The notes: generated by a model not told the origin, from the sequence alone. Counted from the stretch's first letter, positions 1-51,457 are shown. The stretch: 64,000 nucleotides of DNA from Candidatus Woesearchaeota archaeon (GCA_964514585.1 CAZETU010000001.1:82523-146522); one strand, 5' to 3'. Program-made: numbers and translations.

Positions 1-540
1 TATATTAACAATCAAATCGTTCATTGTATCTCTTAAGCTTCCCTGTAATCCAAAACCAAAACCAATATTCAAAAGAAATTCAAAAACCTCCCACAAGACT
101 CCAAGAGCAAGGGCAAAACAAAAAACAAAAAAAGCAATTATCGCAGGGCTAGCCTTAATCACATCTTCATCATTCAAAACACAAAGCACGGTCAGACCAA
201 CAAAACCAAGAACAACGGAGGCGCCAAAATTCAATAAAACGCCCCACCACCAAAATTCAGAAAAAAATCCCATGGCTCCAATATAAATAAAAACACCGAA
301 GATAAACATTAAAATAATTACCTCTATCCCTGCAGGAAATTTAACGTTAAAAAAAGTCCTTAATGTCACAGGAAGGAAAGTAAAAAATAAACCAATAAGA
401 GAAATAACCAAAACCAAATCCCTCTCTACAAAAACAGAAATAAAAATCGAGATCAATAACATCAGACGAATGAAATCTACAATTACCAATCGGACTAAAC
501 TTGAAGATCCGTGCATTCTTTTTTTATAAAAATTTCTCAT
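1..540 (-). CDS. Integral membrane protein, 3'-partial (DUF2238/YjdF-like)
   Basis: Manual translation from ATG at 540 (MRNFYKKRMHGSS...) is open to the window edge. It has several TM segments and the motif ALGVLWEVFEF...GSLRDTMNDLIVNI. Not in the ORF track because it has no stop in the window. Confidence 0.7.
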   Translation of the reverse strand, partial: MRNFYKKRMHGSSSLVRLVIVDFIRLMLLISIFISVFVERDLVLVISLIGLFFTFLPVTLRTFFNVKFPAGIEVIILMFIFGVFIYIGAMGFFSEFWWWGVLLNFGASVVLGFVGLTVLCVLNDEDVIKASPAIIAFFVFCFALALGVLWEVFEFLLNIGFGFGLQGSLRDTMNDLIVNI

Positions 541-590
541 ATAAATAAAATCCTAATCAACTATAAAAAGATTATAGCGTTATAACATGA

Positions 591-1778
591 ATGTTCGCGC
601 TAGTTACCCCACTCCTTCTAGGCCTCCTCTCTGGAATTTTCACCGGACTAATCCCGGGCATCCACATAAACCTCATCGCAACAACCTTCCTAATCCTAAT
701 CCCAGCAACATTATTCCCAATAACATCTATTTTAATTTTCATAACATCAATGGCAATCACCCACACATTTATCGACTTCATACCATCAATTTTCTTAGGC
801 GCCCCCGACGACGATACTACACTTGGAGTTTTACCAGGACACGAACTCTTATTAAAAGGGCAAGGACACTACGCCCTAAAATTAACCCTCATCGGCTCAA
901 CCCTAGCAATCTTATCACTAATTTTCATCATACCAATTTTCATCTTCACCGTTCCAAAAATATATCCTTTCCTCCAAAAAATGATGGGCTTCTTTCTAAT
1001 TTGGGCAAGCATTCTATTAATCTCCCAAGACAAACAAAAAACAAAAGCTATAATGACTTTCCTACTAGCCGGCTTCTTAGGGATGTCGACACTAAACCTT
1101 AACATCAACCAACCAATCCTCCCACTCTTGACTGGACTCTTCGGAGCTTCAACAATTATTCACTCAATAAAATCCAAAACAAATATCCCTCCTCAAATAA
1201 TAGAAAAAAATAAATTCACAAAAAAAGAATTAGTTAAACCAGCCCTCGCAACAATAATCGTTTCTCCAATCTGCTCCCTCCTCCCAGGACTCGGAAGTAG
1301 TCAGGCCGCAATCATTGGATCAAAAATAACAGGCAAACTAAACAGAGAACAATTCCTAATTCTCCTCGGCTCTATAAACACACTAGTAATTTCAATCTCA
1401 TTCATCACACTTTTCCTAATCCAAAAATCACGAACCGGCGTCGCTGCAGCAATGTCGCAAATAACACAACTAACAAACACAAACCTTACAACAATTCTAA
1501 TTACAATTTTAATAACATCCATTCTCATAATCCCAATCACTCTCCAAATCTCAAAACTCTTCGCAAAAAACATCCACAAAATTTCCTACACAAAAATATC
1601 TGTTATACTAATAATTTTTCTAACAACAATTATAACAATCTTCTCCGGGTTCCTAGGCCTCCTGGTATTCGTAATCTCAACCACCCTCGGGTTAACCTGC
1701 ATCGAATTCAAAACAAACAAATCTCTCCTTATGGGATGCCTCCTAATCCCCACAATAATTTTCTATCTCCCTTTCTAA
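591..1778 (+). CDS. Tripartite tricarboxylate transporter TctA-family membrane protein (DUF112)
   Basis: GIFTGLIPGIHIN, FIPSIFLGAP, LPGH and LLPGLGSSQAA motifs; many TM helices. Confidence 0.85.
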   Translation: MFALVTPLLLGLLSGIFTGLIPGIHINLIATTFLILIPATLFPITSILIFITSMAITHTFIDFIPSIFLGAPDDDTTLGVLPGHELLLKGQGHYALKLTLIGSTLAILSLIFIIPIFIFTVPKIYPFLQKMMGFFLIWASILLISQDKQKTKAIMTFLLAGFLGMSTLNLNINQPILPLLTGLFGASTIIHSIKSKTNIPPQIIEKNKFTKKELVKPALATIIVSPICSLLPGLGSSQAAIIGSKITGKLNREQFLILLGSINTLVISISFITLFLIQKSRTGVAAAMSQITQLTNTNLTTILITILITSILIIPITLQISKLFAKNIHKISYTKISVILIIFLTTIITIFSGFLGLLVFVISTTLGLTCIEFKTNKSLLMGCLLIPTIIFYLPF

Positions 1779-1810
1779 ACATTTATTAATCAAAACCACT
1801 ATATACAAAC

Positions 1811-48816: not shown

Positions 48817-48908
48817 AAAAAATTAAGGATACCAAACTTTATAATAGTTTGGATTCCCTATCCCCCCTCAACAATTAACTTTAAAACTAAACATTTTCTA
48901 ACTATATT

Positions 48909-49919
48909 ATGAAATTTGAATCGTGGTATGACAAAAATTACAAGAAACTCCTAATAATACCAGCAATACTTCTAGCCTTATCCCTAATATACATAACCGC
49001 ATTCTACGTCCAAACAGGCGACATCATCAACAAAGACGTCTCCCTAACAGGAGGAACAACAATCACAATCCAAACAGATGTATCAGCCCAAGAAATAGAA
49101 AATGCAGTATCACAAACACTAACTGATTTTGAAGTCAAAACCATATCAGATAATGCAGGAAATCAAATACAATTAATGATTACAGTAGGCGAACAACACT
49201 CCGAAGCACTCGAAACAGCCTTAGAAGAATTTCTCGGCTACGAATTAGCTTCCGAAAATTCATCAAAAGAAACAACAAGTGCATCTCTTTCGGCAGATTT
49301 CTACAAACAACTTATCGTCGCAATTCTCCTAGCATTCTTCTGGATGGCAGCAGTCGTGTTCATAATTTTCTCCAAAGGCAAAAAGGCAAAAACATGGGCA
49401 ATAATCATAAACATTCTTCTCGGTTTCTTCATGGGAAACTTTTTCCTCACGATTAACCCAGTAGTGTCCGCAATCATATTCTTAGCATTTGCAACATTTC
49501 TAATCCGAATGTACATAAAAAATTCAGTCCCAGCTTTCGCAGTTATGCTTTCAGCCTTCTCCGACATCGTCATGACATTAGCAATCGTAAATTTCCTCGG
49601 AATCAAGCTCTCTACCGCCGGAATTGTAGCATTCCTTATGCTTATTGGTTACTCAGTTGACACAGACATACTTCTAACAACAAGACTTCTAAAGAAAAAA
49701 GAAAGCGTCAACTCAGCACTTTTCGGAGCATTCAAAACAGGAACAACAATGACAATAACCTCCATCATCGCAATAATAACAGCTCTTATAGTAGTATTCT
49801 CATTCGCCTCAGTTCTAAACCAAATCTTCACAATATTACTTATCGGTCTAAGTCTCGACCTTTTCAACACATGGGTTACCAACGCCTCAATAATTAAATG
49901 GTACGTCGAAACGAAATGA
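48909..49919 (+). CDS. secF: Protein translocase subunit SecF
   Basis: DVSLTGGT, AFLMLIGYSVDTDILLT. Confidence 0.93.
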   Translation: MKFESWYDKNYKKLLIIPAILLALSLIYITAFYVQTGDIINKDVSLTGGTTITIQTDVSAQEIENAVSQTLTDFEVKTISDNAGNQIQLMITVGEQHSEALETALEEFLGYELASENSSKETTSASLSADFYKQLIVAILLAFFWMAAVVFIIFSKGKKAKTWAIIINILLGFFMGNFFLTINPVVSAIIFLAFATFLIRMYIKNSVPAFAVMLSAFSDIVMTLAIVNFLGIKLSTAGIVAFLMLIGYSVDTDILLTTRLLKKKESVNSALFGAFKTGTTMTITSIIAIITALIVVFSFASVLNQIFTILLIGLSLDLFNTWVTNASIIKWYVETK

Positions 49920-51457
49920 AAATAACATTTAGAATTTGGTTACTAATTGCATGTGTAATGCTGTCCTTGGTCGCGATATTCTCAATTCCCCCAATGATAT
50001 TTGAAAAGGGAGTAATAGTTTCATCAGTAGAACAAAATTCAACCATATTCGAAAGCGGGCTCAGAACAGGGATGATAATAACTGAAATAAACGGACAAAC
50101 AATAACATCAATAGACGATTATTCATTAGCATTCGCTCCTCTTCAAAATTTAGGAGAAAACGAAACACAAAAGCTAACGATAAAAACTGAAACCATAGAA
50201 ATAATTAATTTATTCACAAAAGACGTAATTAATGATATTTCCGTAGAGAAAATCCCATCCTCAAAAATAAAAACAGGTTTAGACTTACAGGGTGGAGCAA
50301 GGGCATTCGTAAAAGCAGATGTCCCACTTTCAGACACACAATTAGCAGATTTAATCTCAGTATCAGAACAAAGACTAAATGTTTACGGGTTATCCGACGT
50401 GAAATTCTTCAAGGTTGTAACCTCAAATCAAGAAAAATTGATGGGTATAGAAATTGCAGGCTCATCCCCAGATGATTTAGAGGAGCTAATAGCAAAACAA
50501 GGACACTTCGAAGCAAAAATTGGAAACGAAACAGTTTTTGTCGGAGGAAATGAAGATGTAACTCATGTCGGACGAACAGGCCAAGACGCATTCATTTCAG
50601 AATGTTTTGAAGTAGAAGGAGGTGAAGCGTGCAATTTCAAATTCGTAATCTTCCTAAGCGAGGACGCAGCCCAAAGACACGCAGATATAACGGACGAACT
50701 ATCAATTAATGGATCCTATCTTAGTAAAAAATTAGATTTCTTTATCGACGAACAACTAACATCTTCATTAAACATCGGAGCCTCTCTTAAAGGAAATATT
50801 GCAACACAAATTCAGATTTCAGGTTCGGGCTCAGGAGCAACAAGACAAGAAGCAATTGAACAAGCAAAAATAGAAATGAAGACGTTGCAGACAATACTAA
50901 TCACAGGGTCACTCCCGTACCAATTAGAAATAGTAAAGATAGACAAGATATCTCCAAACCTAGGAGAACAATTTACAAAACAAATTTTATTAGCTGGGAT
51001 CTTCGCAATTTTAGCAGTTTCAATAGTTGTATTCGTCAGATATAGAAAAATCAAAATTTCATTTGCATTAGTAACGGTCTCCCTTTCAGAAGTTTTAATT
51101 ATCCTTGGAGTGGCAGCATCAATTGGCTGGAATTTAGACCTGCCTTCAATAGCAGGAATCATAGCAGCTATAGGTACGGGGATAGACTCTCAGTTAATTA
51201 TTTTAGATGAGGCACGAGATAAACACGAATCGATGGTTCAGAGAATTAAGAAAGCGCTTTTTATCATCGTGACAGCGTTTACAACAACTTTTGTTGCAAT
51301 GATTCCATTAACAGGTTTTCTAGGCTTCATGGGCATCGGAGCAGCCTCAGCAGGCCTTCTAAAAGGTTTTGCAGTAACGACATTAATTGGTATAACAACA
51401 GGGGTATTAATATCCAGACCAGCTTTCGCAGACATAGCAAAACAATTGGAGAATTAA
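49916..51457 (+). CDS. secD: Protein translocase subunit SecD
   Basis: GLDLQGG, QRLNVYGL, GSLP, IAGIIAAIGTGIDSQ, LKGFA. ATGA overlap with secF. Confidence 0.95.
   Translation: MKITFRIWLLIACVMLSLVAIFSIPPMIFEKGVIVSSVEQNSTIFESGLRTGMIITEINGQTITSIDDYSLAFAPLQNLGENETQKLTIKTETIEIINLFTKDVINDISVEKIPSSKIKTGLDLQGGARAFVKADVPLSDTQLADLISVSEQRLNVYGLSDVKFFKVVTSNQEKLMGIEIAGSSPDDLEELIAKQGHFEAKIGNETVFVGGNEDVTHVGRTGQDAFISECFEVEGGEACNFKFVIFLSEDAAQRHADITDELSINGSYLSKKLDFFIDEQLTSSLNIGASLKGNIATQIQISGSGSGATRQEAIEQAKIEMKTLQTILITGSLPYQLEIVKIDKISPNLGEQFTKQILLAGIFAILAVSIVVFVRYRKIKISFALVTVSLSEVLIILGVAASIGWNLDLPSIAGIIAAIGTGIDSQLIILDEARDKHESMVQRIKKALFIIVTAFTTTFVAMIPLTGFLGFMGIGAASAGLLKGFAVTTLIGITTGVLISRPAFADIAKQLEN

Follow-up and report, generated by a model that had tools for sequence, protein, structure and literature searches.

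Strand bias of one polarity passes through a putative cdc6-side origin in DPANN archaea with a bacterial-type DnaE and may reflect one-way chromosome replication

We have analysed a window of 64,000 nucleotides from a genome deposited as Candidatus Woesearchaeota archaeon (G000:C1:82523-146522, where G000 is the window's own genome), in which a strong strand bias runs without a change of sign through a putative replication origin beside the initiator gene cdc6. The genome is a draft of 1.04 Mb (1,037 kb) in 18 contigs, with 37% G+C and a completeness of about 90%, and the window belongs to a 344-kb contig that has one skew sign throughout. Close relatives have been deposited as metagenome-assembled genomes of Pacearchaeota, Woesearchaeota or Nanoarchaeota, and these names place the host among the DPANN archaea.

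Four replication genes lie on the minus strand of the window in the order cdc6/orc1, PolD DP1, PolD DP2 and DnaE. The Orc1/Cdc6 initiator gene (14579-15793), on the G-rich strand, is the single copy found in the genome. It is accompanied by the genes for the small subunit (DP1, 13000-14514) and the large subunit (DP2, 9552-13040) of PolD, and by that for a full-length bacterial-type DNA polymerase III alpha (DnaE, 5326-8538) with conserved PHP and catalytic Asp motifs. DnaE, MCM and PolB are likewise present in one copy each. A Pol III alpha gene beside the two PolD subunit genes was described in Pacearchaeota by Castelle et al. 2021 (PMC8204110), who reported the gene together with its phylogeny in a paper that contains no analysis of strand bias or replication mode. 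One relative carries a second, distant cdc6-like gene (G015:C6:20258-21319) with 27% identity to the main copy.

The 534-nt intergenic gap upstream of cdc6 (15794-16327) is a candidate oriC, with boxes resembling the archaeal origin recognition box (ORB) and an A/T tract, conserved in relatives. Box 1, which has a G-string, lies on the minus strand at 15860-15886 (reverse complement TTCCAAGAGAAGTAGGGGTG), and box 2, the best conserved across the genus, lies on the same strand at 15966-15997 (reverse complement GATTTCTCTTGGAGAGGAAATAGGGGGG). The A/T tract follows at 16030-16145; it is nearly pure, with 93 A/T in its richest 100 nt, and is a putative unwinding element. Box 3 (TTTCTATGAGAAACCAAGGGGTCAC; 16166-16190) is on the plus strand at the far side of the tract, and the boxes therefore flank it in inverted orientation, like those of a classical archaeal origin. 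Relatives examined for the main box (TTTCTYWTGGAGNGGAAAT..GGGG) keep it ahead of cdc6. Searched for as a strict word, the ORB has a single occurrence in each of the assemblies of G000 and its relative G005, at cdc6 in both, and none was found away from cdc6 in any genome scanned. Two traits of an archaeal Orc1/Cdc6-type origin are thus present, namely the adjoining cdc6 and the inverted ORB boxes around an A/T-rich element, and one fails here, namely a change of skew sign at the origin. On the reading favoured below, this element would be the most likely start point of replication.

The plus strand of the window has a strong excess of C over G and of A over T at 500-50000, the minus strand being G/T-rich. 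This interval holds 12,690 C and 5,816 G (skew -0.371, z about 50), and 2-kb windows range from -0.3 to -0.57 on either side of about 16 kb. The original prediction rested on hand counts in four 60-nt lines, all of them exact: 18 C/0 G (1501), 18/6 (7981), 25/7 (24181) and 23/4 (26041). It had also claimed that the skew is independent of gene direction and keeps its sign across 16 kb, which the fourfold degenerate sites bear out: GC skew of the plus strand at these sites is -0.71 in plus-strand genes and -0.77 in minus-strand genes to the left of the putative origin, and -0.82 and -0.58, respectively, to its right. Around the origin, skew is near zero only over about 1 kb (16.0-17.0 kb), which comprises the A/T tract and two small plus-strand genes. 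Low-GC, island-like DNA accompanies the further near-zero patches (27-30 kb and 43-46 kb) and also a stretch at about 50-62 kb where skew is mostly weak (|skew| <= 0.3). The patch at 27300-30300 (raw skew about 0; GC skew at fourfold sites, GC4, -0.29/-0.55) is probably recently acquired DNA. The weakly skewed low-GC island at 48800-60000 has a GC content of 0.28-0.31 at its lowest.

No flip of the skew occurs at cdc6 in six separately assembled species (G000, G005, G012, G025, G069 and G070). In G000, a single contig keeps one sign for 246 kb upstream of cdc6 and for 97 kb downstream; the corresponding distances in G005 are 120 kb and 60 kb. The sign is unchanged within 45 kb either side of cdc6 in G025, and there is no flip within the first 35 kb of the cdc6 contig of G012. 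The G069 and G070 genomes were mapped with strand-resolved, strand-asymmetric word probes, which give coarse maps of about one match per 10-20 kb; TGAGGCG matched G070 too seldom to serve as a probe. Probe matches in G069 number 75 versus 2 by strand over at least 335 kb including cdc6, and in G070 the plus strand dominates on both sides of cdc6, which lies at 509 kb of contig C1. Misassembly near 16 kb, a check that the original prediction had called for, is excluded because the missing flip recurs in all six species. In Pyrococcus, skew has a sharp optimum at oriC (PMC2958812), whereas here it passes through the element undiminished in the six species.

One polarity extends over most of the chromosome. 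Every large contig of G000 has a single skew sign throughout, and the chain C5rev-C1rev-C4rev-C2-C3 gives 857 kb, 83% of the assembly, of a single polarity. Within this chain, C2 and C3 were joined by an exact 55-mer overlap, C5-C1 and C4-C2 by synteny with both G005 and G025, and C1-C4 by synteny with G025 only, uncontradicted by G005. The G025 genome is almost closed, with contigs of 396, 390 and 116 kb (902 kb in total). A split xerA gene, with one part at the end of C3 and the other at the start of C1, directly joins 512 kb of one polarity. This stretch makes up at least 55% of the genome, and cdc6 lies 121 kb within it. Synteny extends the single polarity to about 790 of the 902 kb, and along the circle so derived, [C2rev][C3][C1], cumulative skew rises almost monotonically with a shallow dip of about 110 kb. 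Contig C1 of G070 covers at least 626 kb, about 90% of a genome of about 700 kb; two independent probes matched it 24+/5- and 31+/7-, and no reversed arc was seen over this length at the coarse resolution of the probe map. G012 was considered as a third scaffold and set aside, its genome being too scrambled and its skew too weak. One skew sign covers about 80-90% of the chromosome, with small reversed blocks in G005, G025 and G069. A neutral-site bias of one sign that runs through the sole origin-like element over this much of the circle does not come from two balanced replichores.

The composition of neutral sites identifies the bias as a replication-type asymmetry. Fourfold sites on one physical strand consist of A 0.16-0.19, C 0.06, G 0.22-0.25 and T 0.52 for genes on either strand, with ratios of about 4:1 for G:C and about 3:1 for T:A. 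The skews for the two gene strands are +0.60/+0.56 (GC4) and -0.53/-0.46 (the AT equivalent, AT4), and the sign at third codon positions and in intergenic DNA is the same whichever strand carries the genes. Gene orientation is ruled out as the cause by this codon-position analysis; a fourfold-site bias equal in sign and size for both gene strands points instead to mutational asymmetry of the replication type. The G/T-rich strand carries about 65% of the coding DNA and the 16S rRNA gene, a coding excess that is expected if this strand has the leading-strand sequence. GC4 skew is flat along the 857-kb chain (0.56-0.71, except in islands), with no gradient or step at the origin. Strand displacement of the mitochondrial type, with late lagging-strand synthesis, is disfavoured as a mechanism because the skew gradient expected of it is not seen along the chain.

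Sign switches inside contigs were found in three genomes, G005, G025 and G069, where strongly reversed pieces measure about 25-30 kb or form a mosaic of patches. In G005:C3, a sharp flip at 29.5-30.0 kb falls exactly at the end of a two-gene unit resembling an insertion sequence (IS), and the other end of the 27-kb reversed block has an inverted copy of the flank of this unit. The block contains core genes (HisRS, ScpA, Rpo7, PheRS and a UvrD-type helicase), and its junction corresponds by synteny to a contig break in G000 beside a copy of the unit. A copy is present on the minus strand of the window (46132-48203; 209 aa + 400 aa), with relatives at the G005 skew switch and at G000 contig ends. 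The unit is multi-copy, occurring in G000 also at C2:201.5k, C3:99k, C3:125k and C7:1-290 with proteins of 400 aa and about 209-291 aa; a search of the proteins of the G005 copies gave no Pfam match. The anomalous zone of about 110 kb in G025 is a mosaic with no coherent replichore: GC4 per gene ranges from -0.9 to +0.9, the mean of about -0.12 has the majority sign, and only about 25 kb are strongly reversed. An IS-bounded flip artefact was rejected as the cause of this zone, for which flanking inverted repeats are absent, and so was an origin at the -/+ switch of G025, which lacks both an ORB and an A/T element. Inverted blocks of smaller size in this genome have intermediate skew, in agreement with a persistent mutation pressure that depends on direction and gradually rewrites DNA after inversion. 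Elsewhere in G025, large inverted repeats (C1, 302-313 vs 340-352 kb; 79-84% identity) bracket a segment with skew near zero, and a 40-kb zone at C1:92-130 kb consists of diverged tandem-like repeats with 73-88% identity. A conserved divergent cluster of replication genes, with FEN1 and an uncharacterised open reading frame (ORF) on one strand and a family-B polymerase on the other, was also observed (G025:C2:227.9-233.5 kb; G000:C5:25-29.5 kb); it is at a skew switch in G025, with a eukaryote-type Topo IB gene nearby, and in uniformly skewed DNA in G000.

The DnaE protein aligns with Thermus aquaticus Pol III alpha (E 6e-217) through its PHP motif, DxD motif and third Asp. Its PHP, palm, fingers, HhH and OB domains are all present with the catalytic aspartates, and it looks functional. 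In G000, at 90% completeness, the beta-clamp family (PF00712) had no match and DnaB (PF03796) only one below the cut-off. Among the genomes sampled, DnaE was found in 24 of 36 belonging to the genus and in 0 of 24 that belong to other families of the same order. Eleven DnaE-negative genomes of sister families have no long-range bias: |GC skew| is mostly <= 0.1, and skews at third codon positions (GC3) are mostly opposite on the two gene strands, a pattern of the transcription type only. Within the genus, G067 (100% complete), G071 and G017 have neither DnaE nor long-range strand purity, and G000, G005, G025, G069 and G070 have both DnaE and the long-range bias. The compared genomes are relatives, so that the link between DnaE and the bias amounts to about one evolutionary event and not to many independent ones. 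The link is supported as a correlation, and DnaE may contribute to the asymmetry. In G006, G036, G069 (C1:311-314k) and G070 (C1:517-520k), the DnaE frame extends to about 2,150-2,270 aa, which appears to reflect a fusion to another large protein or a large insert.

We hypothesize that the chromosome is replicated effectively in one direction, fired from the cdc6-side origin, a reading to which we assign an even chance. It takes the bias as a record of fork direction, as composition and synteny suggest. Forks running the same way as transcription of cdc6, polD and dnaE would copy almost the whole chromosome, and the strand with the leading-strand sequence would have become G- and T-rich on a scale otherwise characteristic of mitochondrial genomes. 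Replication would start at the conserved ORB/A-T element upstream of cdc6 and leave it one way only, which would place origin and terminus next to each other. The few reversed blocks (25-30 kb) would be inversions of recent date whose skew has not had time to re-equilibrate; in G005, IS-like repeats flank the inversion. DnaE would contribute to the asymmetry. The more specific proposition, that a free-standing cellular chromosome of 0.7-1 Mb replicates unidirectionally from an Orc1-type origin and that capture of the bacterial DnaE created a hybrid replisome, copying the two strands so differently that asymmetry reaches a mitochondrial scale, is put forward more tentatively. The original prediction had envisaged a single fork circling the chromosome, with uniform skew as the result. 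The absence of a flip at cdc6 and the uniform polarity of at least 55% (directly joined) to about 90% of the chromosome in G025, G070 and G000 agree with it, and the small reversed blocks make the skew imperfectly uniform.

Several observations weigh against one-way replication and its link to DnaE. The inverted ORB boxes around an A/T tract match ordinary bidirectional origins, and nothing in the sequence explains firing in one direction. A core-gene block homologous to G000:C7 has reversed skew of full strength in both G005 and G025; if this is one old state, the block is truly copied the other way, possibly with an origin at its edge. A further switch is located near 110-119 kb in G069:C2, and in G000 and G025 the region roughly opposite cdc6, where a bidirectional terminus would be, contains weakly skewed, rearranged DNA. 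As to the polymerase, G012 has DnaE yet is scrambled and weakly skewed, and G009 (82% complete), with no DnaE found, is strongly strand-pure; G013 and G010 also show strand purity with no DnaE found, though ambiguously; the three genomes are 82-91% complete. The earlier suggestion that two different polymerases amplify the bias thus agrees with the correlation across relatives, but the link is not clean inside the genus.

The foremost alternative, which we regard as unlikely, is a lopsided form of bidirectional replication. The true origin would sit where the skew diverges at the border of a small, C7-like reversed block (about 25-40 kb), one fork would stop after the block at a fixed barrier while the other copied the remaining 90-95%, and the ORB element at cdc6 would be regulatory or dormant. 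The sign switches within contigs are real (G005:C3 at 29.5-30 kb, G025:C2 and G069:C2), two distant species show strong reversal of the C7-like core block, and one G025 switch has the replication genes PolB, FEN1 and Topo IB, all of which this alternative would accommodate. It is at odds with the want of an ORB or A/T-rich element at the G025 switch and of any strict ORB word off cdc6 in the genomes scanned. Moreover, the genes that adjoin the switches differ among species, the PolB-FEN1 locus of G000 is in uniformly skewed DNA, and the mapped length of G070 (at least 626 kb) has no reversed arc. We know of no fork-trap system in archaea, which also counts against a fixed barrier.

Slightly less probable still is a bias unrelated to fork direction, in which replication might start bidirectionally at cdc6 and one physical strand would be treated differently all the way round, for example because DnaE and PolD are each tied to one strand, because there is a rolling-circle or single-stranded phase, or because repair is strand-specific. 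Such a process would agree with an origin whose anatomy is that of an ordinary, symmetric, bidirectional one, with the weakly skewed and rearranged DNA roughly opposite cdc6, with the lack of a gradient or step along 857 kb, and with the occurrence of the bias alongside a foreign polymerase. A fixed assignment of polymerases would, however, need two kinds of fork, because one strand leads on one side of a bidirectional origin and lags on the other, and inverted blocks carry or lose skew as a direction-dependent process predicts. Ordinary bidirectional replication with balanced replichores and switches hidden in assembly gaps, or an artefact of assembly or binning, is very improbable: although G000 is a draft of 18 arbitrarily oriented contigs, none over half the genome, the two opposite switch points that the original prediction had set against its own reading are contradicted by single-polarity stretches of at least 626 of about 700 kb in G070 (where C1 makes up about 90% of the genome), 512-790 of 902 kb in G025 (at least 55% joined directly through the split gene) and 857 of 1,037 kb in G000, the pattern recurs in six separately assembled species, and no inverted repeats flank the anomalous zone of G025.

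The locus shares features with several known systems. It resembles archaeal origins such as Pyrococcus oriC and Sulfolobus oriC1 in the adjoining sole orc1/cdc6, the nearby polD genes and the inverted G-string ORB boxes around an A/T tract. Bias of one sign around nearly the whole circle, which implies an adjacent origin and terminus, is shared with replicons that use unidirectional theta replication, such as the plasmids ColE1 and R1 and some huge phages (PMC7162821). Those replicons are small and accessory with dedicated initiators, whereas here a chromosome of 0.7-1 Mb has an Orc1/MCM/PolD core and firing in one direction is suggested by composition. Among Bacillota, PolC and DnaE likewise pair two replicative polymerases with strong compositional and gene-strand bias (here about 65% of the coding DNA on the G-rich strand), but with two balanced replichores and a flip at oriC; the present lineage has archaeal PolD and PolB with a lone DnaE, and no beta-clamp or DnaB was found. 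In vertebrate mitochondrial DNA, one strand is G- and T-rich at neutral sites and very large skews of one sign extend genome-wide. The likeness to the present case lies in the G/T-rich strand and the very large, one-sign skew; the archaeal genome is about 50 times larger, has no skew gradient from the origin, which argues against a mitochondrial-style mechanism, and has no replication proteins of the mitochondrial type.

Bacterial and single-origin archaeal chromosomes follow the textbook rule of bidirectional replication with a skew flip at the origin. This rule would not hold for a lineage that keeps a single polarity through almost the full circle, and our literature search found no paper describing such a skew pattern. 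If the reading holds, skew-based origin calling and assembly checks would mislead for these genomes; cumulative skew is used to check the correctness of metagenome-assembled genomes (PMC7111523). The lineage would also be a natural experiment on a bacterial replicase joining an archaeal replisome, and a bias this large lets inverted or imported DNA be recognised directly in the genomes. Closed Pacearchaeales genomes and long reads exist (preprint 10.64898/2026.05.13.725050, with 208 complete genomes of Nanobdellota), so that the question is testable at once.

The original prediction had also pointed to xerA and dif-like sites near the origin as a sign that the terminus is close by. A gene for a XerA-like tyrosine recombinase is present on the plus strand at 24000-24827, 8 kb from the putative origin. 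The protein has a clear Pfam integrase domain and scores 219.3 bits against NF040815 (recomb_XerA_Arch), just under the cut-off of 220. The nearness of this gene to oriC is conserved, at 5-8 kb upstream in four species; as a sign of the terminus it is not supported, the position of xerA being uninformative about the terminus in Thermococcales (PMC2958812). The dif-like sites, which are not supported as dif, are probably the two copies of a conserved 40-nt non-coding element (..TTCACNNAGCNNACCTAAGTGCACAAC..; 21826-21865 and 22160-22199), which lack the 11-6-11 architecture of Xer sites. The element is duplicated around a small ORF in the window, is single at the syntenic place in G005, G012 and G025, and matched no Rfam family. 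Palindromes of the 11-6-11 form are numerous by chance in the G000 genome, and no candidate 28-bp dif site (11-bp arms, 6-bp spacer) in non-coding DNA proved to be conserved between G005 and G025. Outside the window, a 28-nt palindrome with A/T flanks (TTCCGNGAGTCGCGTCTCGCGGAA) has four non-coding copies in G000 (C1:318834, C1:342736, C5:41194 and C5:44040) and may be a regulatory or recombination site.

Three further observations concern the G000 assembly. A 112-nt Rfam tRNA match on the minus strand of the window (48346-48457), absent from the ARAGORN output, is probably an intron-containing archaeal tRNA. The small contigs C11 and C13 share long arrays of units of about 216 bp that are 88-96% alike and probably represent the unresolved gene of a giant, repetitive protein. 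Contig C12 (4,491 bases) has identical first and last 55 bases and closes to a circle of about 4.4 kb; its GC content is 0.31 and its skew slight, and it may represent a small plasmid or virus that was sorted into the genome bin.

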